NCBI GenBank assembly: GCA_003213495.1
Contig: QCMW01000001.1
Coordinates: 926,704 to 990,703 of the forward strand
Source of the DNA: SAR86 cluster bacterium AG-422-O05
GTDB taxonomy: Bacteria; Pseudomonadota; Gammaproteobacteria; Magnimaribacterales; D2472
DNA: 64,000 bases
Direction of reading: 5' to 3'
A program made the position numbers and the translations under genes. The notes below the pieces were generated by a model. It did not search any database. It was not told where the DNA came from and saw nothing but the letters and a program-made list of their open reading frames with translations. This document shows, piece by piece, positions 2,585 to 44,886 of this stretch. Position 1 is the first letter of the stretch. Every line of letters begins with the position of its first letter.

Positions 2585-3235
2585 ATGAAATATCCTATCT
2601 TATATTCCTTTAAAAGATGTCCATATGCAATGCGTGCAAGAATGGCACTTCAACTTGCAGGCATAAAGTGTGAACTGAGAGAAGTTAGACTCAATAATAA
2701 ACCTGATCATATGTTGGAAGCTTCTCCAAAGGGAACTGTTCCTGTTCTTGTGCTTGGTGATAAAGTTATTGATGAAAGTAATGACATAATAAACTGGGTA
2801 CTTAATGACCATAAAATATTTGAAGTCAATCTAAGCGATGAACAATCAAATTTAGCTAAAGATCTAATTGAATTATTTGATGAAAAATTTAAATTTCATT
2901 TAGACAGATATAAATATGCAACAAGATATGAAAATTCAGATACAGAACTGCATCAATCTAAATGTATGCAAATACTAAAAAATCTTGAAAAAATTATTCC
3001 TAAAAGTAATTGGATTTTTGGGGAAGATATTAGTAAATTAGATATATCTATATTGCCATTTATTAGGCAATTCAGAATTGCTAACCCAGAATGGTTTGAT
3101 TCTCAAGAGGGGATTGAGAAATTACAGAATGTACTAAACAACTTCTTAGAATCAAAGTTATTCAAGGATATAATGCATGTATACGATGTTTGGAAAAAAG
3201 ATTCAGAACCAGTTTTTTTTCCAATCACCAATTAG
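2585..3235 (+). CDS. GST-fold / glutaredoxin-2-like protein
   Basis: 216 aa. N-terminal thioredoxin-like motif YSFKRCPYAMRARMAL...GTVPVL followed by a helical C-domain. Size and layout resemble Grx2/GST N-terminal-domain proteins. Confidence 0.6.
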   Translation: MKYPILYSFKRCPYAMRARMALQLAGIKCELREVRLNNKPDHMLEASPKGTVPVLVLGDKVIDESNDIINWVLNDHKIFEVNLSDEQSNLAKDLIELFDEKFKFHLDRYKYATRYENSDTELHQSKCMQILKNLEKIIPKSNWIFGEDISKLDISILPFIRQFRIANPEWFDSQEGIEKLQNVLNNFLESKLFKDIMHVYDVWKKDSEPVFFPITN

Positions 3236-3353
3236 TAGGATGATTATTTGATGACTTATCTTTAGTACCTTGATTTTTTTTTATTAACATTGCTCCAACT
3301 ACCGCAAGCACAATAATTATTAGCAAGGGCAACATTTGCAATATTAGAGTCAT
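3225..3353 (-). CDS. possible 42-aa single-TM peptide (MTLILQMLPLLIIIVLAVVGAMLIKKNQGTKDKSSNNHPTNW)
   Basis: Hand-translated ORF below the ORF-track size cutoff, lying downstream of gdh and the 83-aa ORF on the same strand. It has a hydrophobic helix followed by a basic tail and overlaps the 3' end of the convergent GST gene by 11 nt. Confidence 0.25.
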   Translation of the reverse strand: MTLILQMLPLLIIIVLAVVGAMLIKKNQGTKDKSSNNHPTNW

Positions 3354-3370
3354 GTTCACGTTCACAAATG

Positions 3371-3622
3371 CTATTCCTCTTTCTCATAAATTACATATAC
3401 ACCATCACCCCATGTGAATAGCCCAAATGTAAGAATTAGAACAACTAGTCTAAGTATTCTGAGTAAAGCATTTTGATCACTGCCGGGAACAATATTTATA
3501 ACTCTCCAGCCATATTCATTAGCTTGAGCGACTCTGCTGTTAATCGTATCTTTTGGATTTACTGCCAGCCATCCAATTAATCCACCTATAAATGAAATTT
3601 CATCAATTTTATTTCTTTTCAT
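3371..3622 (-). CDS. hypothetical small membrane protein (83 aa)
   Basis: ORF 19 nt downstream of gdh with two hydrophobic segments (FIGGLIGWLAV, LRLVVLILTFGLFTW). I recognise no family. Confidence 0.4.
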   Translation of the reverse strand: MKRNKIDEISFIGGLIGWLAVNPKDTINSRVAQANEYGWRVINIVPGSDQNALLRILRLVVLILTFGLFTWGDGVYVIYEKEE

Positions 3623-3641
3623 AATATTTTCCTTTTAGAAT

Positions 3642-5042
3642 TTATAAACCAATAAAGTCATATGATAAGGCAATTTTTTCAATTGCTGCCTTAAAAGCGG
3701 CAGTTCTGAAATCAGGTATTTTATCCGTTTTAAGAAATTCTTTTTTAACATTTTGAAATCCATCAATCATCATATCATCTAAGCCTGATCTAATTAGATC
3801 AATTTCTTCTATACCATTATGAAAGTTTGATTTATATTTTGCAGGCATAGTCTTACCTGTCATTGATTCAATAGCTTCAATTAAATTATTAAGTTGAATT
3901 TGATTTCTTCTTTTTTCAAGTCTTCCAAATCTAATATGCCTTAGATTTTTCACCCACTCAAAATAACTAACGGCCACACCTCCACCATTAGCAAGTATGT
4001 CTGGTATCACGAATATTTTTTTTCTATTTAAAATTTGATTACCTTTGTAACTAATAGGACCGTTAGCAGCTTCCACAATTAATCTAGCTGAAATATCTTC
4101 AGCATTTTTTTCAGTGATAACATTTTCACGAGCAGCTGGAATCAAAATATCGCATTTTCTTTTTAGCAACAATGATGAATCTTTTATAAAAGTTGCTTTA
4201 GGATAGTTTTCAAATGAATTATGTTTAGTAAAATATTTTTTTGCATGTTCAACATTTATTCCATCTTCGTTATAAATACCGCCGTTGAACTCTGAAATAC
4301 CAATTAACCTGATACCATCATCCTCTGTAAGAAATTTTGACAAGTGATAACCAACATTGCCAAGGCCTTGCAATATAAATGATTTAGTTGATAAATCATT
4401 ATTAAGTTTTACAAGTTTCAACAAATCTGGATTTCTAAAAAATTCTCTAACAATATATTGAACTCCTCTTCCGGTAGCTTCTTCTCTTCCCACAAGACCA
4501 TTTTTACTAGGAGGCTTTCCAGTCACACATGCTGAACCATTGATGTCTGCTGGATGTATTTTTCTATATTCGTCGGCAATCCATGCCATTTCTTTTGATG
4601 AAGTTCCAATATCAGGCGCAGGAACATTCGTGGACGGACTTATAAGGTCTCTTTTAATTAATTCTTGTGCAAACCTTCTAGTGATTTTTTCTAACTCTCT
4701 GCTTTCCCACTGAGTTGGATCAATTTTGAGTCCACCCTTAGAACCACCGTATGGTACGTTGATAATAGCGCATTTGTAAGACATTAATGCTGCGAGAGCT
4801 TCTACTTCTTCTGCGTGAGTATCCATATCAAACCTAATGCCACCTTTTGTAGGTTCCATATGCTCAGAATGAACGGAGCGCCAACCTTCAAATGTATAGA
4901 TTTGTCCTCTAAGCCTTACACCAAATCTCACAGTATAAGTAGAATTACAAGTAATAATTTTCTTAGCTAAATCATCAGATAGTTCAGAGTACTTAAGTGC
5001 TTTATTTACATACCTATTGGTATCTAATAAAAAATTATTCAT
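3642..5042 (-). CDS. gdh: NAD(P)-dependent glutamate dehydrogenase (Glu/Leu/Phe/Val dehydrogenase family)
   Basis: 466 aa. Motifs KGGIRF, catalytic-lysine block PYGGSKGG, and dinucleotide fold GLGNVG. A GGGGTGAG Shine-Dalgarno sequence precedes the ATG. Confidence 0.85.
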   Translation of the reverse strand: MNNFLLDTNRYVNKALKYSELSDDLAKKIITCNSTYTVRFGVRLRGQIYTFEGWRSVHSEHMEPTKGGIRFDMDTHAEEVEALAALMSYKCAIINVPYGGSKGGLKIDPTQWESRELEKITRRFAQELIKRDLISPSTNVPAPDIGTSSKEMAWIADEYRKIHPADINGSACVTGKPPSKNGLVGREEATGRGVQYIVREFFRNPDLLKLVKLNNDLSTKSFILQGLGNVGYHLSKFLTEDDGIRLIGISEFNGGIYNEDGINVEHAKKYFTKHNSFENYPKATFIKDSSLLLKRKCDILIPAARENVITEKNAEDISARLIVEAANGPISYKGNQILNRKKIFVIPDILANGGGVAVSYFEWVKNLRHIRFGRLEKRRNQIQLNNLIEAIESMTGKTMPAKYKSNFHNGIEEIDLIRSGLDDMMIDGFQNVKKEFLKTDKIPDFRTAAFKAAIEKIALSYDFIGL

Positions 5043-37108: not shown

Positions 37109-38119
37109 ATGACTAAATTCCTTTTATCATTGGCCGAATCAGGCCTTATTTCTGATACCTTAATAAAAATTGCTGTGAGATTTATTACCAACAATCGCTT
37201 AAAAGAATCGAACAATAAGGATGAAATTATCAGCGCGCTTTCTGATGGGGTTGTTGCTGAAAAAACTTACGACGCCAACGAGCAACATTATGAAGTTCCT
37301 CCGGAATTTTTTAACCAAGTTTTGGGAGCAAACCTAAAATATTCTTGTTCACTTTTTGAGAACGTAAATTCTTTAGATGAAGCAGAAAAATTGATGCTTG
37401 AGCTTTATATAGAAAGAGCTGATATTAAAAACGGTCATGAAATTCTTGACCTAGGCTGTGGGTGGGGTAGTTTTTCTCTTTATGTAGCTGAAAAGTATCC
37501 AGATACAAAAATTACATCAGTTAGTAATTCAACCGATCAAATTAGATATATTAAAAATGAAGCACAAAAAAGAGGCTTATCAAATATCAAAGCTTATAGA
37601 ATGGATGTTAATAACCTCGAATTAGATGCACAATTTGATCGAATTGTTTCAATAGAAATGTTTGAACATCTGAGGAACTATAAATTAATTTTAAATTCTC
37701 TTAACAATTTACTAAAACCTGATGGAAGATTATTTATTCATATTTTCTGCCATAAAAAGCTAACTTACTTTTATGAAATGAAAAATAATTTTGATTGGAT
37801 GACAAAGTATTTCTTTCAAGGTGGCATTATGCCTAGTAAAGATATTTTTGAGTACTTTGATGATGACTTAGAAATTATCAATCAATGGGATATCAATGGA
37901 AATCACTATTCAAAAACTTGTAAGGCTTGGCTAGATAATCATTATAAAAATAAGAAAAAAATATTAGATATATTTCAGAACCACTATGACAAACCCAAAA
38001 TCTGGTTTAACAGATGGAGAATCTTCTTTTTATCTTGTGAGGCTTTCTTTGCATTAAATAATGGCAAAGAATATTTTGTTTCTCATTATTTGTTAAGGAA
38101 AAATTCTGGTCGCGAATAA
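37109..38119 (+). CDS. cyclopropane-fatty-acyl-phospholipid synthase family (CMAS-type) SAM-dependent methyltransferase
   Basis: 336 aa. QHYEVP.EFF...LG..LKYSC.LF, motif I ILDLGCGWGS, SIEMFEH, and a C-terminal W..N.......W..FFL.CEA.F. Confidence 0.75.
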   Translation: MTKFLLSLAESGLISDTLIKIAVRFITNNRLKESNNKDEIISALSDGVVAEKTYDANEQHYEVPPEFFNQVLGANLKYSCSLFENVNSLDEAEKLMLELYIERADIKNGHEILDLGCGWGSFSLYVAEKYPDTKITSVSNSTDQIRYIKNEAQKRGLSNIKAYRMDVNNLELDAQFDRIVSIEMFEHLRNYKLILNSLNNLLKPDGRLFIHIFCHKKLTYFYEMKNNFDWMTKYFFQGGIMPSKDIFEYFDDDLEIINQWDINGNHYSKTCKAWLDNHYKNKKKILDIFQNHYDKPKIWFNRWRIFFLSCEAFFALNNGKEYFVSHYLLRKNSGRE

Positions 38120-38236
38120 CCCACCTAGTGTCGCTAGAAAGTACCTACGATTTAGACAAAACCAAGCCTACTAATATCTTCTATCTCTAATTCTATCTTT
38201 GGTAGTCTTATTATTATTTGGTTTATACTTTTAGCT

Positions 38237-38383
38237 ATGGAAATATTTGATTTAATATTTTGGGGTTTTCATATACTTGGATTTTACATCGGCATAAAAT
38301 TGGTTGAAAGTGGTTTTATTGACGGTACTTTATATTTAGTATTATGGGCGTTATATATTTTTTATAATTTTATTTGGAACTAG
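38237..38383 (+). CDS. possible 48-aa two-helix membrane peptide (MEIFDLIFWGFHILGFYIGIKLVESGFIDGTLYLVLWALYIFYNFIWN)
   Basis: Hand-translated ORF below the ORF-track cutoff, in otherwise unassigned DNA. Its stop codon lies inside the CTAGCTTCTTCCTAG motif. Confidence 0.25.
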   Translation: MEIFDLIFWGFHILGFYIGIKLVESGFIDGTLYLVLWALYIFYNFIWN

Positions 38384-38394
38384 CTTCTTCCTAG
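38380..38394. repeat. CTAGCTTCTTCCTAG motif, copy 1
   Basis: 14/15 identical to 39048-39062. Both copies sit at the 3' end of small plus-strand membrane-peptide ORFs. Confidence 0.6.
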
Positions 38395-38404
38395 TAACCC
38401 TTTT

Positions 38405-38704
38405 TCATAGTTTGCTTTGATAGGTTTCTTCATACTCTTTAATATAATCTTCCATATCGTTTATACAATATTCTAGTTCATCTATTTTTGATTGAATAAA
38501 TGTAATGAGTTTTTCAGACTTATTTTTAAAAACGCCATATTTTATATTTACAACATCATCATTACTAAGAAATTTTTTATCGCCATCTTTTTTTATATCT
38601 AAAACATCTTTTAATTCACTTTGTCTTTGTTCTAGCCATCTCTTGTGATCAGGTAAAATCTTGATATATTTTTTATAGCGTTTTTTGTGTTTAGGATTAA
38701 TCAT
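38405..38704 (-). CDS. hypothetical basic/coiled-coil protein (99 aa)
   Basis: ORF with a Lys-rich N-terminus and an acidic helical C-terminus. No family recognised. Confidence 0.4.
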   Translation of the reverse strand: MINPKHKKRYKKYIKILPDHKRWLEQRQSELKDVLDIKKDGDKKFLSNDDVVNIKYGVFKNKSEKLITFIQSKIDELEYCINDMEDYIKEYEETYQSKL

Positions 38705-38773
38705 TTCTAACTCTATCCTTATCTTATAACAAAATTATTTATCGTGCCTTAATAGGTTTGGTATGATTGGGGT

Positions 38774-39046
38774 ATGAATGATGATCCTTGGAATGTAAAA
38801 GAAAAAAAAGAACAAAAAAAAATTAAAGAGGAATTAGCATCAAAAAAAAAGAAAGGAATCCTAGCACAAAAGTTTGATAAGCTACCTCCACATGTAAAAG
38901 CTGTTCTTCAAGCTATGTTTGTTTTTGTAACTGCTCCTATAGCTCTTGTTGTAATAGTAATACTGATTAGAGATTATTTTTTTATAACTGTTTCAGTTGT
39001 TATTATTTTAATTGTTTATTTCATAGTAAAAAAAATTAGGGGATAG
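38774..39046 (+). CDS. hypothetical membrane protein (90 aa; Lys-rich N-terminus, two TM helices)
   Basis: ORF divergent from the 99-aa ORF. Hydrophobic segments AVLQAMFVFVTAPIALVVIVILI and ITVSVVIILIVYFIV. Confidence 0.4.
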   Translation: MNDDPWNVKEKKEQKKIKEELASKKKKGILAQKFDKLPPHVKAVLQAMFVFVTAPIALVVIVILIRDYFFITVSVVIILIVYFIVKKIRG

Positions 39047-39047
39047 T

Positions 39048-39062
39048 CTAGGTTCTTCCTAG
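39048..39062. repeat. CTAGGTTCTTCCTAG motif, copy 2
   Basis: 14/15 identical to 38380-38394. Confidence 0.6.
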
Positions 39063-39173
39063 CCACTTCCTTCGGGTAATTCGCGACTCCATTCTTTGTC
39101 TAGCGATAGAATCAAAAAAGCCATGTCATGTCCGAAACTTTGGTATAGTTATATAAAACCTTAAGTAAATAAT

Positions 39174-39614
39174 ATGAAAAAATTATTAGCAATTCTTCTT
39201 TTATCACCTTTAATACAATCGGAAATTATTGAATATTATTGTGAAATGGAAGCTTATGATTATTTAACTCTTAAAATAGATGATGATCCAAATAATAAAA
39301 GTTTTGTTATAGAAAATTCTGTTTCTATTGTAGATGTTGGTAATAAAAACTTTATTGCTGATGTAGATAACATCAAAATCATGCCAATAACAATTTTTGT
39401 TTTAAAAGAAAATAGTGATGTATATCTTGCTGAAATGTATGAATTTAATAGACTAACTAATGTTTTAATTTATGAAGTATTTGGGGACAATAGAATTGAA
39501 AAAAAGCTTCTAGAAGAATATAAAAGCTTTATTAAAAGCGACTCTAAAATAGGCGAAAAGGACGGGAACGCTAATTATTATTTATGCCAACCTATCAAAA
39601 GCAATAACCCTTAA
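39174..39614 (+). CDS. hypothetical secreted protein (146 aa)
   Basis: Signal peptide MKKLLAILLLSPLIQS and two Cys residues near the two ends. No family recognised. Confidence 0.45.
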   Translation: MKKLLAILLLSPLIQSEIIEYYCEMEAYDYLTLKIDDDPNNKSFVIENSVSIVDVGNKNFIADVDNIKIMPITIFVLKENSDVYLAEMYEFNRLTNVLIYEVFGDNRIEKKLLEEYKSFIKSDSKIGEKDGNANYYLCQPIKSNNP

Positions 39615-39632
39615 CTATAAGTATATAAAAAC

Positions 39633-39667
39633 GACAAGGCTAAGATAGGAGATTACTTAACCTTGTC
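39633..39667 (+). other. extended hairpin (GACAAGG-c-TAAG ... CTTA-a-CCTTGTC)
   Basis: 11 paired positions with one C/A mismatch and an 11-nt loop, 19 nt after the 146-aa ORF stop. No T-run follows. Confidence 0.4.
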
Positions 39668-39697
39668 TCATTTAGTGTTTCTGCAAAGAACTTATAA

Positions 39698-39722
39698 TCT
39701 CTAAGTGTTTTTTACTTAGAGA
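39698..39722. other. perfect 9-bp stem hairpin TCTCTAAGT-(GTTTTTT)-ACTTAGAGA
   Basis: Seen directly in the sequence. A TATAAT hexamer (39693-39698) abuts its 5' edge. Confidence 0.45.
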
Positions 39723-39867
39723 CTTCATTAACGAAACTGCATTGGGATCATTCTTCGCATACTTCTCAAAAATCTGAATGGAGAGTAATAAATTTAAAAG
39801 AGTATAATGAGATACAGGATTCGCTTCTGCATCTTCTTAATTCATCATGTACAATATCGTCTTCAAT

Positions 39868-39943
<76 letters not shown>

Positions 39944-39944
39944 T

Positions 39945-40631
39945 TTATACTTTTACGTCTTCTATGTTTGGTTCTGTTAATTGATAGTCACTAAAACAAA
40001 TGCGTTCAGTTTGTTTCATGGCATTAGTCATACCTTCAGTAATAAATAAAATATCATCAATGGCTACATTAGATGCAAACTTTATTTTGATTAACTCCGC
40101 ATTTCTAAGACCAGGATGATGAATAGGTTTTAAAAGATAATTACCTGTATCATCAAAAACAGCATCAACATTAAAAACTATTTTTTTAGGTTTATAGTTA
40201 TTAATGATCATAGTTGCTTCGATTTTGTCACCTTCGTTGTAATTACTCGTTCCCATAGGAGTCACAATTCTTGGATTAGTACATATACAAAAAGGTCTAT
40301 CCATTTCTATAAAAATTTCAGATAGCGAACTGTCAGAAGTTTTTCGCATTACTAAAGTTTCTTCCCAGGACATAATGCCCCAGTTATCAATGGTTTTCAT
40401 ATCAATAGCTGCAGAAAGATATGAAGATGAGATTGTTAGGAGGAGAAGAAATTTTCGATATGGGTTTTTATGGCTACCAGAAAAGGGACCATAATGAACC
40501 ATGTCGTTATCAAGAATAATCTCATCTTCATAATCATATGAATTTTTCTTTTTTGTAAATAATTTCTTAACTCCAAGAACAAGCAAAAGTACGATTACAC
40601 CAACTAAACCATAACCAATAAATTCTTCCAT
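39945..40631 (-). CDS. hypothetical membrane protein (228 aa), third gene of the ECF-like operon
   Basis: N-terminal TM helix (GLVGVIVLLLVLGV) followed by a KK..KKK stretch, then a second weak hydrophobic segment. A GGAG Shine-Dalgarno sequence is present, and the gene has its own copy of the TGTAAC-N16-CGTTAAG motif. The stop codon lies 1 nt from the tRNA-Ala 3' end. Confidence 0.5.
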   Translation of the reverse strand: MEEFIGYGLVGVIVLLLVLGVKKLFTKKKNSYDYEDEIILDNDMVHYGPFSGSHKNPYRKFLLLLTISSSYLSAAIDMKTIDNWGIMSWEETLVMRKTSDSSLSEIFIEMDRPFCICTNPRIVTPMGTSNYNEGDKIEATMIINNYKPKKIVFNVDAVFDDTGNYLLKPIHHPGLRNAELIKIKFASNVAIDDILFITEGMTNAMKQTERICFSDYQLTEPNIEDVKV

Positions 40632-40660
40632 ATTTTCTCCAAAATAGTGTTATATATATA

Positions 40661-40689
40661 CTTAACGAAGCTAAAGAGAATTTGTTACA
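40661..40689 (-). promoter_or_regulatory. ECF-type promoter motif, copy A (TGTAAC-N16-CGTTAAGTAT)
   Basis: Minus-strand read: AATTTGTAACAAATTCTCTTTAGCTTCGTTAAGTATATA. It lies between the anti-sigma stop (40696) and the 228-aa ORF start (40631). Confidence 0.5.
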
Positions 40690-40695
40690 AATTGT

Positions 40696-41346
40696 TTAAC
40701 AGCTGCAAAAAATGTGGCGCTTAACTTCAGTGATAACGAAGTTTGTCTCAAGATCTTCTACAAGGGAAAGATCTACAAAATAATCTCTATCGGTTCTGGG
40801 CATATTGATGTTGTTATCAATAAATGAATCTTTATTACCTTCATATACAACATACATAATTTCGTATCGATCAACACCAAGCTCTTTTGCCATTCTTGAA
40901 GCAGTACTCCAAAGTGTACCCATTTCAGATCCTGATATATAGATAGGTTGAGGATCTATACCAGGAACTTCCTCAAAATCTGCATAAATCAACTGATCAG
41001 ATTCTTCTTCAGAATCAATAATTTGCTCAGGAGAGTTTACAAATGTAATAGCTATAAATGCTAAGCTAGCAGCTAAAGCAAAACCTATAAAAGGTTTAAG
41101 ATAATAAGATTGTACTCTATTGTTAGTATCAACTTCTTTCTTATTAATGCTATCGATCTTATTATTAAATTCGATATATTCATCTGCAAAGAGATTTTTT
41201 AGGTTAGTATCATTCATCAATAGATTTTCATAAAGGTTTTGTGCTTCACTTGAGGATTCCAAAATATTTTTAAGCTCAATAGAGTTTTCAGGAGTCTTTC
41301 CCTGGTCTATTAACTCAATTATTTTATTTTCTATTGCTTCATTCAT
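40696..41346 (-). CDS. anti-sigma-factor-like single-pass membrane protein with a FimV/LysM-like periplasmic motif
   Basis: 216 aa. Helical N-domain, TM helix FIGFALAASLAFIAITFV (residues about 85-103), then a periplasmic domain. It overlaps the sigma-like ORF by 8 nt, suggesting translational coupling. Confidence 0.45.
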   Translation of the reverse strand: MNEAIENKIIELIDQGKTPENSIELKNILESSSEAQNLYENLLMNDTNLKNLFADEYIEFNNKIDSINKKEVDTNNRVQSYYLKPFIGFALAASLAFIAITFVNSPEQIIDSEEESDQLIYADFEEVPGIDPQPIYISGSEMGTLWSTASRMAKELGVDRYEIMYVVYEGNKDSFIDNNINMPRTDRDYFVDLSLVEDLETNFVITEVKRHIFCSC

Positions 41347-41935
41347 AATTTCTACCTGTTAATTTTGCAAGTTTAATTCTAGCTCTGCTAGTTTTGACTC
41401 TTAGATTACCTAAAGTTATTTCTTTTTCACTAATAATATTTACCGCTTCATGAATTTCTTTATCGCTATTTCCTTGACCCTTCATTGTTAAAATAGTTTG
41501 GTCAACTTCATCTAATTTTTTTATACATTCCATAGTTTTTTCCAGCTCATCTATTACATCCTCAGGAGTTTCTTTAATAGAATATAGAGATTGTTTTTTT
41601 TGCATTTCAATAAATCTATTCTCTGCACGATGCAAATCAATTGAACTCCGCTTCATAATTAATTTTGCATATAACAATGGCTTTGGATGTGACATAAATG
41701 TTTCTTTATTTTTTAGTATTTTGTCATTCATGATTCCCATTAATTCCCAGGACCTATCGTAATCTTGCTTTGATAAGACTCTTGCATAACCAAATAAAAC
41801 TCGGTTTGTTATCTCTAAAAGCTTTTCAAATGACATTTCTTTATTTTGCCACATTTCATTAAAGACATTGTTTTCACAATAGGAGTAATCATCGATATCA
41901 CTCGAATAAGATTTAATTGCCGATAAAGATTTCAT
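41339..41935 (-). CDS. highly divergent ECF-type sigma-70 family factor (candidate)
   Basis: 198 aa. Region-2-like FEKLLEITNRVLFGYARVL ... PLLYAKLIMKRSSIDLHRAENR, and a region-4-like HTH LDEVDQTILTMKGQGNSDKEIHEAV...LGNLRVKTSRARIKLAKL. Confidence 0.5.
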   Translation of the reverse strand: MKSLSAIKSYSSDIDDYSYCENNVFNEMWQNKEMSFEKLLEITNRVLFGYARVLSKQDYDRSWELMGIMNDKILKNKETFMSHPKPLLYAKLIMKRSSIDLHRAENRFIEMQKKQSLYSIKETPEDVIDELEKTMECIKKLDEVDQTILTMKGQGNSDKEIHEAVNIISEKEITLGNLRVKTSRARIKLAKLTGRNYE

Positions 41936-41951
41936 TTTATTACTTTATCTA

Positions 41952-41980
41952 CTTAACGTACTTAAATACAAAATGTTACA
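41952..41980 (-). promoter_or_regulatory. ECF-type promoter motif, copy B (TGTAAC-N16-CGTTAAGTAG)
   Basis: Minus-strand read: AATTTGTAACATTTTGTATTTAAGTACGTTAAGTAGAT. The CGTTAA element ends 17 nt before the sigma-like ORF's ATG. Confidence 0.5.
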
Positions 41981-42014
41981 AATTATTTTAGTTATTTTTA
42001 AAACTTTATAACTA

Positions 42015-42043
42015 CTTAACGCAGTTAGATGAAAAATGTTACA
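42015..42043 (-). promoter_or_regulatory. ECF-type promoter motif, copy C (TGTAAC-N16-CGTTAAGTAG)
   Basis: Minus-strand read: AACTTGTAACATTTTTCATCTAACTGCGTTAAGTAGTT. It lies 63 bp upstream of copy B, and its -35 element sits 2 nt after the monooxygenase stop codon. Confidence 0.45.
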
Positions 42044-42045
42044 AG

Positions 42046-43494
42046 TTATTTTTTATTATTGTAAAAATTAAGGTTTGTATCATTTATTGAGAATACCCTT
42101 ACAACAAAGATGTCCTTTAAATAGTTTTGATAATTTTTCCATGGGGCTTTATTGCCTTGTTTTGGCATCATATGCAGACCTCTTTGAAAATATCCTGAGT
42201 TGAAATCTATTAATTTATCATCTCCGTACGCACTTTCATCATTTATTGGTGCGCAACACAAAACACCTTTCTTATCCATTAAATTTATTAATCTGCACAC
42301 ATATTCACATGTAAGATCTGCTCGCAATGTCCATGATGCATTTACATATCCAAAACTAACAGCAAAGTTGGGCACACCACTGAGCATCATTCCCTTATAG
42401 GTAAGTCTTTCATTTGGATTGATCTTAACTTTATCAATTGTTACATCTATATCATTGAAAGAATTTAATTCAATCCCGGTGGCAGTAATAATAATATCAG
42501 CCTCAATTATTTTGCCTGAGTCTAATTTAATACCATCTGATTCAAATTCTGCAATAGTATCTGTAACTACAGAAGCCTTATTATTTTTAATTGATTCAAA
42601 TAAATCGCTATCAGGAACTAGGCATATTCTTTGATCCCAAGGTTTATAGGTTGGAGTGAAGTGTTTTTCAATATCGAAATCAGGACCAAGTTCTTCTCGA
42701 ACTAACTCAAGTATTTTATTCTTTGTTCTTTCTGGATATCGTCGTGCCACAGAGAATGTAAAACTTTGCCAAAGTATATTCTTCCATCTAATTAAGAAGT
42801 ACGTAATTTTTGAAGGTAAAATTTTTCTTAGAAATTTATTAATCTTATCTTCACTAGGTCCTGATACAACATAGGTTGGCGATCTTTGAACCATAGTTAC
42901 ATGCTCAGCTATTTCTGCCAGTGCTGGAACAATAGTTATTGCAGTGGCTCCACTACCTATGACAGCTATCTTTTTGTTTGCATAGTTAATATCCTCATTC
43001 CAAAACTGAGGGTGAACAATATCTCCGTTAAAACTGTCCTCATTTTTAAAAGAGGGCATATGTGGCTTTGTATAACTATAGTAACCACCACATAGAAAAA
43101 GAAAATTACATGTCATATTTTTAGTTTCATTATTTTCATCTATGGCAAGTTCCCATATAGATTGATCTGAATTCCAGTTTGCTGATTTAATCTTGTTATT
43201 TAATGAAATGTGATTTCTTAAATCATATTCATCAATTGTTTCATTTAAATATTCAAGAATAGAAGGACCGTCAGCTATAGATTTATCGTGTATCCATGGT
43301 TTAAACCTAAATCCTAATGTATGCATATCTGAATCAGATCTTATGCCAGGATACTTAAAAAGATCCCAGGTTCCACCGATATTATCTCTAGCTTCTAAGA
43401 TGGTAAAAGACTTATTAGGACAACTTTTTTTAAGATTATAGCCAGCAGCAATTCCAGATATACCTGCTCCTACAACAATTACATCTTTATGCAT
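42046..43494 (-). CDS. flavin-dependent Baeyer-Villiger-type monooxygenase
   Basis: 482 aa. FAD fold VVGAGISGI, the BVMO fingerprint FNGDIVHPQFWN (FxGxxxHxxxW), and a second dinucleotide fold VIGSGATA. Confidence 0.8.
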   Translation of the reverse strand: MHKDVIVVGAGISGIAAGYNLKKSCPNKSFTILEARDNIGGTWDLFKYPGIRSDSDMHTLGFRFKPWIHDKSIADGPSILEYLNETIDEYDLRNHISLNNKIKSANWNSDQSIWELAIDENNETKNMTCNFLFLCGGYYSYTKPHMPSFKNEDSFNGDIVHPQFWNEDINYANKKIAVIGSGATAITIVPALAEIAEHVTMVQRSPTYVVSGPSEDKINKFLRKILPSKITYFLIRWKNILWQSFTFSVARRYPERTKNKILELVREELGPDFDIEKHFTPTYKPWDQRICLVPDSDLFESIKNNKASVVTDTIAEFESDGIKLDSGKIIEADIIITATGIELNSFNDIDVTIDKVKINPNERLTYKGMMLSGVPNFAVSFGYVNASWTLRADLTCEYVCRLINLMDKKGVLCCAPINDESAYGDDKLIDFNSGYFQRGLHMMPKQGNKAPWKNYQNYLKDIFVVRVFSINDTNLNFYNNKK

Positions 43495-44886
43495 TTATTT
43501 AGTTCTCTTATTTTCAATATCTTGAATAATTAATTGTGCTTGTTTCACAGCAAGACCAATGTAAGTTTCAGGATCAAGAATATTCTTTAATTCTGATTTA
43601 GTAATATTTTTTGAAATTATTCTGTTTTGTAGCGCAGCCTCTTCTAGAGTTAAATTATTTTCTAATGCAAATTTCGCAACATCATGCATTAGCTCATTAG
43701 CAGTATCTTTGCCAATCTTATCTGCAAGATAAAAAGTAAGTCTTTGAGATAATATTAGACCATTAGTTAAGTCTAAGTTATCACGCATTTTTTGTTTGTT
43801 AACTTTAAGTTCTTTAAGAAGAGGTTTAGCTCGATCTAACATCTGCTCTGTGACTATAGATATCTGTTTAAGCTCATCGTCGCTTTTTTCGCCGTCTCTC
43901 TCAAAGCTATTAATCATGTCATCTAATACAATCTCTGATAATCTTGGAATAATTCGTGAGTATTCAAGTAAGTCTCCAGGTCCTCTAGGATTTTTTTTCT
44001 GAGGCATAGTGCTACTGCCCACAGATTTGGAACCAAGATACTCTTCGGTTTCGCCTAATTCTGTCATTTGAAGAAGAGTCAGTTCATTTCCAATTCTGCC
44101 AAAAGATTTTGAAATTATTGCAAGAGTTAACGCATATTCTGCAAAAACATCTCTTATACCATGCCAGTCATCTTTGGATGGTTCATCAAGACCTAGATTT
44201 ATCATCATGAGTTTTTCAGTCTCTATAGCCTGCGTGCCTAGCCCTAAATAAGAACCTACAGCTCCTTTGAGAATTCCTGATTTGTTAATTTTTGATTGAA
44301 CGTGTTGTAAGCGTTCAATATTTCTTCTATTTTCAGCTAACCATGTACTAGTTTTTTTTCCAAAGGTAATTGGAAGTGCGTGTTGGCCAAGAGTTCTGCC
44401 GGGCATGTAAGTATATAAATTATCTTTAGTAAGTGTTAATAAATAATTTTCAATCTCTAATAAGTCATCAATCAAAAGATCAATAGAGTCTTTTATTTGA
44501 AGTACTAAAACCGTATCCCATATATCAACTGTTGTTGCTCCATAGTGAAGATATTCTGCTGCATCTTTATCTATGGAACGCTTCCAAACATTTAATCTAG
44601 CAACCAGAGTATGTCTTACAAGTTTATGTTCCATATCGATATCTTTTTGAGAAAGGTATTTAATATCAGCCTTAGAAGATATTTCATTTGCAGCCCAAGA
44701 GGGAATAATACCAAGCTCAGATTGTGCTTCCGCAAGCGCAACCTCAACATCCATAAATAATTGATTTTTATAATTCACTTTAAATATATTTGCTACGGTA
44801 TCTTCAGCAAGGATTGTTCCAGATAAAATAATTAAAAATGAAAGTAGATATTTTTTCATGCATTTATTATATGGGTTATGATTCAT
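43495..44886 (-). CDS. fumarate-lyase superfamily protein (adenylosuccinate lyase / 3-carboxymuconate cycloisomerase-like) with a signal-peptide-like N-terminal extension
   Basis: Signature GSSTMPQKKNP, plus HYGATTVDI and PGRTLGQHALPITFG. The probable start is the Met at 44859 (MKKYLLSFLIILSGTILAEDT). The stop directly abuts the monooxygenase ATG. Confidence 0.75.
   Translation of the reverse strand: MNHNPYNKCMKKYLLSFLIILSGTILAEDTVANIFKVNYKNQLFMDVEVALAEAQSELGIIPSWAANEISSKADIKYLSQKDIDMEHKLVRHTLVARLNVWKRSIDKDAAEYLHYGATTVDIWDTVLVLQIKDSIDLLIDDLLEIENYLLTLTKDNLYTYMPGRTLGQHALPITFGKKTSTWLAENRRNIERLQHVQSKINKSGILKGAVGSYLGLGTQAIETEKLMMINLGLDEPSKDDWHGIRDVFAEYALTLAIISKSFGRIGNELTLLQMTELGETEEYLGSKSVGSSTMPQKKNPRGPGDLLEYSRIIPRLSEIVLDDMINSFERDGEKSDDELKQISIVTEQMLDRAKPLLKELKVNKQKMRDNLDLTNGLILSQRLTFYLADKIGKDTANELMHDVAKFALENNLTLEEAALQNRIISKNITKSELKNILDPETYIGLAVKQAQLIIQDIENKRTK

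Follow-up and report, generated by a model that had tools for sequence, protein, structure and literature searches.

A probable self-contained ECF sigma factor module with conserved promoter-like sites in SAR86 bacteria

Three closely packed genes on the minus strand of a 64-kb stretch of SAR86 DNA (Gammaproteobacteria; G+C 33%), hereafter the window, raise the question of whether bacteria of this group possess an extracytoplasmic function (ECF) sigma factor circuit of their own. The genes encode proteins of 198, 216 and 228 amino acids (aa), and a promoter-like motif stands before the first and the third of them. An initial annotation, made from the sequence alone, had described them as a candidate module of sigma factor, anti-sigma factor and membrane protein. 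The analysis presented here indicates that the locus is quite probably a self-contained, SAR86-specific ECF sigma module consisting of a sigma factor, a membrane inhibitor, autoregulated promoters and gene 3 as output. This reading is built on the homology of the first protein to sigma factors, the motif and its conservation at both positions, the order and coupling of the genes, and the topology features of their products, all of which the analysis shows. The genes are located as follows:

41339..41935, minus strand: gene 1, 198 aa, divergent ECF (group IV) sigma factor (open reading frame scan, profile comparisons)
40696..41346, minus strand: gene 2, 216 aa, probable membrane anti-sigma factor (open reading frame scan, hydropathy, AlphaFold2)
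39945..40631, minus strand: gene 3, 228 aa, conserved orphan membrane-anchored protein (open reading frame scan)

The open reading frame scan reproduced the tight packing of the three frames, their translations and the 8-nt overlap of genes 1 and 2, just as they had been described. Gene 3 follows gene 2 after a gap of 65 nt and is preceded by a GGAG ribosome-binding site; a terminator was looked for between these two genes and was not found.

Gene 1 is supported as a fast-evolving ECF sigma factor by transitive homology through its orthologues, not directly. A word-indexed search for homologues of the sigma gene gave only relatives at 83% identity or more, and the divergent SAR86 loci were reached via homologues of genes 2 and 3 and the contigs that carry them. 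In these loci (designated by numbers such as L002), the position of gene 1 is always occupied by a protein of 191-233 aa. Such positional orthologues score 25-46 bits on Sigma70_r2 (cut-off 24), and those of L002, L003, L004, L007 and L008 reach 48-65 bits on the TIGR02937 sigma70-ECF model (cut-off 42.9), with alignments spanning regions 2 and 4 (r2 and r4). The window clade aligns with the orthologues over residues 27-198 at a probability of 99.9% (hhalign, E 5.9e-36); that is, the 198-aa protein shares full-length homology with proteins that pass the ECF thresholds. Profiles of the orthologues, built with or without the window clade, match ECF sigma factors in the PDB, namely 5uxx (E 1.9e-17 and 7.8e-16), SigE, SigH and SigW. 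The positions at which all sigma types are conserved are located in r2.1-2.4 and in the recognition helix of r4.2, N-LRVK-xx-RAR-x-LA. The layout is that of an ECF factor, with r2 (~36-110) and r4 (~130-190) joined by a variable linker and with regions 1.1 and 3 absent. It is preceded by an N-terminal extension of ~35 aa, which is unusual, conserved and common to the whole sigma family, and hydropathy analysis of the 198-aa protein revealed no transmembrane segment.

A profile search of 1.84 billion representatives found just 28 relatives of the window clade; consequently, the sigma family is tiny. Among them, the full-length proteins tested exceed the Pfam cut-off for Sigma70_r2, and in one of these Sigma70_r4_2 was detected as well. 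The best named match of the 198-aa protein is NF058625 (the GFO_1088/PG0214 ECF family), on which SAR86 orthologues and relatives score 41-87 bits, below the cut-off of 130. A second sub-threshold NCBIfam match of the protein is SigX (16.5 bits, E 0.0065). It had been expected that a sigma factor this divergent would be invisible to automated annotation, an expectation that proved wrong: IMG/JGI already labels a 99%-identical protein as 'sigma24 family'.

The second line of evidence is the motif. Its sites in the window, and the duplication associated with two of them, are:

42013..42043, minus strand: P1, distal ECF-type promoter-like site, ~86 nt upstream of the sigma start codon
41950..41980, minus strand: P2, proximal ECF-type promoter-like site, CGT 23 nt before the sigma ATG
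41935..42066, minus strand: 63-bp tandem duplication, ~2 copies (Tandem Repeats Finder, period 63, 82% matches)
40659..40689, minus strand: P3, ECF-type promoter-like site in the gap between genes 2 and 3, CGT 36 nt before the gene 3 ATG

Searching the 64 kb for TGTAACA-N15-CGTTAAGTA yields only three matches, each on the minus strand, where chance would give 0.03; none of 100 shuffles reached three. Two lie before gene 1 and one before gene 3, as the initial annotation had reported. Allowing up to two mismatches added no site, and the relaxed patterns GTAAC-N16-CGT and TGTAAC-N15-17-CGTTA returned the same three places only. By comparison, hexamer pairs of the sigma-70 type show no enrichment here (15 found, 21 expected from shuffles). 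The P1/P2 pair was created by the 63-bp tandem duplication, and the GGAG ribosome-binding site sits between P3 and the gene 3 ATG. The distance of 23 nt between the CGT of P2 and the sigma ATG implies a very short leader.

Two observations concern this leader. In the window, the leader from P2 would measure ~11-13 nt, and it shows no clear Shine-Dalgarno sequence. The sigma start codon also lies near CGT in L008 (433-470) and L033 (1326-1380), only ~13 nt after it in L008, and a sigma mRNA of the L008 type would be leaderless or nearly so.

The motif was then followed through 12 SAR86 loci, drawn from five or more divergent lineages, in which gene 3 is 55-96% identical to that of the window. 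The arrangement TTTGTAAC-N16-CGT stands ahead of both the sigma gene and gene 3 in all 12 loci, with the consensus (A/T)AATTTGTAACA-N15-CGTT(A). The two blocks and their spacing are fixed across lineages, while the spacers and the bases after CGTT vary. The -10 element is CGTT at every one of the 25 sites, and in the window clade all promoters share an identical extended -10 (CGTTAAGTA). From CGT to the start codon there are 13-40 nt, or 86 nt in the case of the duplicated P1. The genes flanking the module differ between lineages (monooxygenase and tRNA-Ala in the window; umuDC, RRM or helicase genes elsewhere). Consequently, the motif belongs to the module and not to its neighbourhood. At the sequence level, these are the features of an ECF factor's own promoter class: a -35 with AAC and a -10 with CGT, set ~16-17 nt apart. 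The cognate-promoter idea of the initial annotation is therefore upheld, as orthologous loci keep the motif at both positions and it is absent elsewhere in the 64 kb. The description of the promoter as triplicated needs to be narrowed: the three sites are present in the window, but the duplication is specific to a subclade, and most lineages have one sigma-proximal copy. More precisely, TTGTAAC-N16-CGT occurs near the sigma gene once per locus and twice in the window subclade, and once before gene 3 everywhere. P1 is present in the window, L001, L005/6 and L009/10 and absent from L011/L012, L004, L002, L003, L007 and L008. Even L011 and L012, which are close relatives of the window, have a single sigma-proximal site.

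Beyond SAR86, a metagenome-wide scan was carried out with TTGTAACA-NNV-N12-CGTTAAGTA, a pattern built to exclude the known sites and restricted to those that have the exact CGTTAAGTA and a base other than T at spacer position 3. Among its 19 hits, none is a convincing site for a further SAR86 target. Three, of which two are distinct, precede clear ECF sigma genes by 14-30 nt; these genes belong to unrelated organisms of higher G+C, and this suggests a promoter class common to distant ECF groups. The sigma factor of L019 is a full member of NF058625 (186 bits) and is preceded by an identical TTGTAACA-N15-CGTTAAGTA. In its operon, the sigma gene is followed by a gene for a 143-aa transmembrane protein and then by genes for two DUF4252 proteins, for none of which a relationship to gene 2 or gene 3 was detectable; an hhalign comparison of the N-terminal domain of gene 2 with the 143-aa protein likewise gave no relationship.

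The ECF sigma genes preceded by TTGTAACA-N15-CGTTAAGTA are found at L019 1699-2279 (minus strand), L029 9339-9957 (plus strand) and L021 1148-1409 (plus strand). The same motif also occurs at L013 7055-7086 (minus strand), 12 nt upstream of a 483-aa frame resembling a secreted esterase, on a contig of 40% G+C. It may mark a gene targeted by an ECF factor in some other organism, or have arisen by chance.

Gene 2 is the probable anti-sigma factor, an assignment resting on gene coupling, topology and co-variation with the sigma factor. Its start overlaps the sigma stop in all lineages examined. Hydropathy predicts one transmembrane helix (~82-105), and the Lys and Arg residues that precede this helix and the acidic stretch (net -6) that follows it indicate an orientation with the N-terminus inside and the C-terminus outside. 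In the AlphaFold2 model, residues 1-44 have predicted local distance difference test (pLDDT) values of 76-89, with confident helices at 3-14, 23-31 and the start of 33-52, and residues 133-213 (pLDDT 70-88) form a beta-alpha-alpha-beta unit plus a helix. The protein thus comprises a helical cytoplasmic domain from residue 1 to ~70, the transmembrane helix, an acidic linker and an outer domain (~133-213). This is the anti-sigma architecture that the initial annotation had claimed, and the downstream overlap and single-pass topology are those of class I anti-sigma factors; the claim lacks a match to any anti-sigma profile or fold. The N-terminal helices are compatible with an anti-sigma domain in the model, though not diagnostic of one.

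All 1131 homologues of gene 2 are unannotated and without Pfam domains; Pfam searches with gene 2 and gene 3 orthologues found nothing, and PDB profile searches with the N-terminal and C-terminal domains of gene 2 found nothing relevant. The outer domain gives a sub-threshold match to the NCBIfam model FimV_core (TIGR03505) in 11 of 11 diverse homologues (best E 4e-9); the window protein itself scores 25-27 bits (cut-off 43.45). This model describes the LysM-like module found in FimV/HubP. The protein ends in an invariant EVKRH-I-(F/Y)-C-x-C, which contains an HxxCxC motif (H211, C214, C216). These extracytoplasmic residues are the only conserved His and Cys of the protein. Residues 1-80 contain neither amino acid, and because the cytoplasmic domain lacks both, gene 2 is not a zinc anti-sigma factor.

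The sigma gene and part of gene 2 have evolved very differently from the rest of the locus. Between the window and L004, the flanks share 88-91% nucleotide identity and gene 3 shares 96% amino-acid identity, whereas the sigma proteins are 31% identical and their genes have essentially no nucleotide similarity. Gene 2 is intermediate (61% overall), with 70-100% identity in the outer domain and 33-47% over residues 31-120. Three sigma types, mutually ~32% identical, occupy the same position in the locus:

Type A: window clade
Type B: L004 and P0230; 41-aa linker insertion
Type C: L002, L003, L007 and L008

Type C sigma factors keep 69-73% identity even in comparisons where gene 3 identity drops to 61%; the trees of the sigma gene and of gene 3 are therefore incongruent. 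Synonymous divergence (dS) is decoupled as well. For the window and L001, it is 0.027 in the sigma gene and 0.34-0.41 in the flanks; for L001 and L009, it is 0.16 in the sigma gene and 0.02-0.07 in the flanks. This pattern points to allele replacement by recombination at the sigma gene. The ratio of non-synonymous to synonymous divergence (dN/dS) of the sigma gene ranges from 0.17 to 1.17, compared with 0.04-0.13 for its neighbours, and lies below 0.5 in nine of ten pairs. The simplest reading of these sequence comparisons is that a cassette comprising the sigma factor and its interface with the anti-sigma factor has undergone repeated allele exchange together with fast, mostly purifying evolution. 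At least three allele types exist, all framed by the same promoters and followed by a gene 3 that hardly changes; while the cassette varies, the predicted sensor domain of gene 2, gene 3 itself and the promoters remain constant. The hypervariable tract of gene 2 (31-120) takes in part of the cytoplasmic domain, the transmembrane helix and the start of the linker. Its joint hypervariability with the sigma factor offers indirect support for a physical interaction of the two proteins.

Gene 3 is a conserved orphan with 520 homologues at 55-100% identity. The claim that the 228-aa product is a membrane protein was borne out by hydropathy, which gives one N-terminal transmembrane segment (~3-22), with MEE before it, KKLFTKKK after it and a beta-rich domain following. 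By the positive-inside rule, the remaining ~200 residues would be cytoplasmic. Residues H46, C115 and C117 (CxC), and C212 are invariant; a metal or redox site would be compatible with them, as a matter of speculation. No match to gene 3 was found in Pfam, NCBIfam, a PDB profile search or the PADLOC defence models. Its AlphaFold2 model is poor (mean pLDDT 45) and beta-rich, and the Foldseek search suggested in the initial annotation yielded only weak, generic beta-sandwich matches (best E 0.01, template modelling score ~0.25). Gene 3 had also been put forward as the only visible output of the circuit in the window. This description holds: gene 3 is the only output of the circuit that could be detected.

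A circuit of the following kind would account for these parts. Gene 2, translationally coupled to gene 1, would hold the sigma factor at the membrane through its cytoplasmic helices, and its LysM/FimV-like outer domain with the HxxCxC motif would act as the sensor, possibly of a peptidoglycan/envelope or a redox/metal cue. A cue on the envelope side would relieve this hold, and the freed sigma factor, together with core RNA polymerase, would initiate at TTTGTAACA-N15-CGTT promoters. Transcription from P1 and P2 would supply both the sigma factor and its inhibitor, a positive autoregulation that brings its own negative feedback, and P3 would add gene 3 expression on top of read-through. Gene 3 would then be an effector or, less likely, a feedback regulator. 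The binding of sigma and anti-sigma factor, the use of the promoters, the signal and the function of gene 3 are the predicted elements of this scheme.

Several results weigh against this reading. The 198-aa protein has no Pfam sigma match even at E up to 10, scores 25.7 bits (E 8e-6) on NF058625 against a cut-off of 130, and itself reaches no curated threshold for Sigma70_r2, Sigma70_r4/r4_2 or TIGR02937. The earlier designation of this protein as an ECF sigma factor thus stands through its orthologues and fails on its own Pfam and NCBIfam scores. A window-clade profile (13 sequences, 83-100% identical) found no sigma factor in the PDB and returned only noise, because the alignment is too shallow; the hhalign comparison of the profile (effective number of sequences 1.2) with an unverified E. 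coli RpoE sequence gave no match and is uninformative. Region 2.2 reads ELMG in the window clade and DLIQ in the orthologues. The dN/dS of 1.17 belongs to the closest pair of sigma genes, with 3 synonymous and 15 non-synonymous changes. As regards gene 2, no anti-sigma domain was found by Pfam, NCBIfam, PDB profile search or Foldseek (PDB), and the HxxxCxxC motif of zinc anti-sigma factors does not occur in its cytoplasmic domain. Finally, the search for a regulon covered the 64-kb window, ~90 kb of related loci and the restricted metagenome pattern.

The alternative that survives best places gene 3 on the regulatory side of the circuit. It would then be a second regulator of the sigma factor, either a co-anti-sigma factor or a stabiliser of gene 2 similar to RseB or AabB; through its own sigma-dependent promoter, the negative feedback would come with a delay, and the genes of the true regulon would be situated elsewhere in the genome. 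Three-gene ECF operons whose third gene modulates the anti-sigma factor are documented, namely rpoE-rseA-rseB and sigAb-aabA-aabB (PMC12153292). Gene 3 accompanies the module in every locus examined, invariant Cys and His residues occur in both gene 2 (HxxCxC) and gene 3 (CxC + C + H), and only part of the genome was covered in the search for further promoters. However, RseB and AabB are periplasmic, whereas MEE before the transmembrane helix of gene 3 and five Lys after it place its bulk in the cytoplasm. It is also the slowest-evolving part of the module (dN/dS 0.04-0.13) and does not co-vary with the sigma factor and the N-terminal tract of gene 2, and neither the 64 kb nor the restricted metagenome scan provided additional motif sites. 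A regulatory gene 3 is possible but doubtful, and the self-contained module with gene 3 as output is retained here. A bolder version of this module is rather unlikely: that the sigma factor and the cytoplasmic half of the inhibitor form a hypervariable, recombining cassette under diversifying selection at their interface, for example through phage factors aimed at host sigma factors, that the circuit is a minimal and possibly the sole envelope-stress pathway, and that its output is a new kind of membrane-tethered Cys/His protein.

Gene 2 could also be an independent envelope protein, for example one of the LysM peptidoglycan-binding type, that is merely co-transcribed with the sigma gene. Its sole family signal is indeed the LysM-like FimV_core, and an anti-sigma domain escaped every profile and fold search; anti-sigma domains are, however, notoriously divergent. 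An unrelated passenger is also difficult to reconcile with the overlap of its start with the sigma stop in every lineage, with a single-pass topology that leaves a helical domain of ~70 aa in the cytoplasm, or with a hypervariable tract that includes the sigma factor and residues 31-120 of gene 2 and excludes the outer domain. This alternative is considered improbable, and gene 2 is treated as the probable anti-sigma factor.

Decay of the 198-aa protein, with the promoters as leftovers or served by another ECF sigma factor, is a very unlikely explanation. A decaying or repurposed relic might fail the Pfam and NCBIfam thresholds that its orthologues pass, and the altered region 2.2, a 5-aa insertion in the r4.2 helix-turn-helix of the window clade and a dN/dS above the 0.04-0.13 of the neighbouring genes would suit it. 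Nevertheless, more than 100 full-length metagenomic variants of the protein show no pattern of truncation, the dN/dS stays below 0.5 in all but one of the ten pairs, and the positions invariant within the clade cover the helices of r2 and r4. The clade-wide identity of the extended -10 and the retention of both copies of the duplicated promoter point to active use. The weakest alternative, that an unrelated DNA-binding regulator uses the motif as its operator or that the motif is a short intergenic repeat, is hardly credible: the two upstream copies did arise by simple tandem duplication in AT-rich intergenic DNA with sigma-70-like hexamers nearby, but these hexamers do not exceed shuffles, and the motif is non-palindromic, keeps two invariant blocks at a fixed 16-nt spacing around variable spacers, always lies on the coding strand 13-40 nt (P1: 86 nt) upstream of a start codon, fits the AAC/CGT hallmark of ECF promoters (PMC3420878, PMC8315932, PMC12153292) and is found again immediately before ECF sigma genes of unrelated organisms.

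In kind, the system is a canonical autoregulated ECF sigma/anti-sigma module; it is set apart by its restriction to one lineage, its two orphan partners and its unusual evolution. None of the named ECF subgroups tested (NF058625, ECF16, EcfG) includes it. With RpoE-RseA-RseB, SigW-RsiW and SigX-RsiX it shares a sigma factor of ~190 aa made up of r2 and r4, an overlapping downstream gene for a single-pass protein with the N-terminus inside, and an AAC -35 with a CGT -10 before the sigma gene itself. It differs from them in its CGTT(A) -10 and in having no sequence-level membership in a named subgroup. In its probable anti-sigma factor, neither an anti-sigma domain nor a zinc motif is recognisable, and the outer domain is LysM/FimV-like and bears HxxCxC; the third gene of the module is an orphan with an internal promoter of its own. 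The promoter of B. subtilis SigX, TGTAAC/CGWC, has the same -35 as the SAR86 sites (PMC12153292).

By analogy, SigAb-AabA-AabB of Acinetobacter appears to be the nearest functional counterpart. It is a lineage-restricted gammaproteobacterial system of three overlapping genes with a CGTT -10, a very small direct regulon and orphan partners (PMC12153292). However, its promoter, GTCAAC-N17-CGTT (PMC12153292), has a different -35 and a 17-nt spacer, no internal promoter precedes its third gene, AabA is 107 aa long and AabB is periplasmic; no sequence relationship was seen, and none was tested for.

NF058625 (Bacteroidota) is the closest named family, and its member in L019 shares the identical motif. 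All SAR86 proteins nevertheless fall far below 130 bits, and the genes downstream of the L019 sigma gene are unlike genes 2 and 3. A likeness to the EcfG group (ECF15, Alphaproteobacteria) arises from 5uxx, the best PDB match of the SAR86 profile (E 1.9e-17, full length). This entry, listed as 'RNA polymerase sigma factor', is presumably the EcfG-type sigma factor of Bartonella; a literature search on 5uxx returned nothing relevant. The EcfG consensus is GGAAC-N16/17-CGTT, and its -10 matches that of SAR86. The SAR86 -35 is TGTAAC and not GGAAC, and the partner is a 216-aa membrane protein instead of the small soluble NepR; EcfG is excluded on account of these two differences. Furthermore, the SAR86 locus has no PhyR-type anti-anti-sigma factor, and the host is gammaproteobacterial. 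In ECF16, the anti-sigma factors are multi-pass membrane proteins (DUF1109-type), whereas gene 2 has one transmembrane helix. The ECF16 systems SigF/NrsF, EcfF/OsrA and BcrS/AbcS resemble the module in their autoregulated operons, small regulons and promoter, (T/C)GTAAC-N16/17-CGAA (PMC3420878, PMC8315932). Their -10 is CGAA and that of SAR86 is CGTT, and ECF16 is excluded because both the -10 and the type of anti-sigma factor differ.

Relatives of the module were found at a single locus among 185,579 species genomes, that of a SAR86 single-cell genome, and the three-gene module has been found only in SAR86. This group is among the most abundant bacterial groups of the surface ocean and is assumed to hold few regulators. 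Genomes of SAR86 (Magnimaribacterales) are streamlined, at ~1-1.7 Mb (bioRxiv 10.1101/2024.03.17.584874), and the G+C content of the window is in keeping with them. In the SAR86 literature searched, no statement on its sigma factors was found. A small module with a clear motif and an apparently single output offers a tractable handle on the stress that SAR86 senses. Genomes and metatranscriptomes can be searched for the motif, the small size of the circuit would allow its reconstruction in E. coli, and a cultured SAR86 strain now exists. The fast turnover of the sigma factor against a fixed promoter and target also provides a natural case of co-evolution between a regulator and its partner. 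The value of the locus lies in the organism and the orphan parts and not in a new mechanism, as ECF sigma/anti-sigma pairs of this kind are textbook knowledge.

The surroundings of the module can be described briefly. In the window lineage, its downstream boundary is marked by one further feature, which abuts the stop codon of gene 3, one base away:

39868..39943, plus strand: tRNA-Ala(GGC) gene, convergent

An Rfam scan of the window found only tRNAs, and an explanation by a riboswitch or small RNA was consequently dropped. A reading of the locus as a defence system was also discarded, as the PADLOC models matched nothing.

Immediately upstream of the module (window 42046-44886, minus strand) lie a flavin monooxygenase gene (Baeyer-Villiger-type, FMO-like) and an adenylosuccinate-lyase-family gene, named by Pfam labels from orthologues, and this synteny is kept in the window clade. 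The monooxygenase stop codon is 2 nt from P1, and the P1 -35 starts right after the stop. In L011, a close relative with a single sigma-proximal promoter copy, a gene for a 330-aa Trypsin_2 serine protease (2961-3953) is inserted between the monooxygenase and sigma genes. On the other side of the module, beside tRNA-Ala(GGC), ~1.7 kb of small frames (window 38105-39786) include a secreted-looking 146-aa frame (39174-39614, plus strand), a 90-aa transmembrane frame (38774-39046, plus strand) and a 99-aa frame (38405-38704, minus strand). L001, a close relative, lacks this stretch and L004/L005 have only scraps of it, while both its flanks are 88-93% identical, and it looks like a hypervariable islet beside the tRNA gene.

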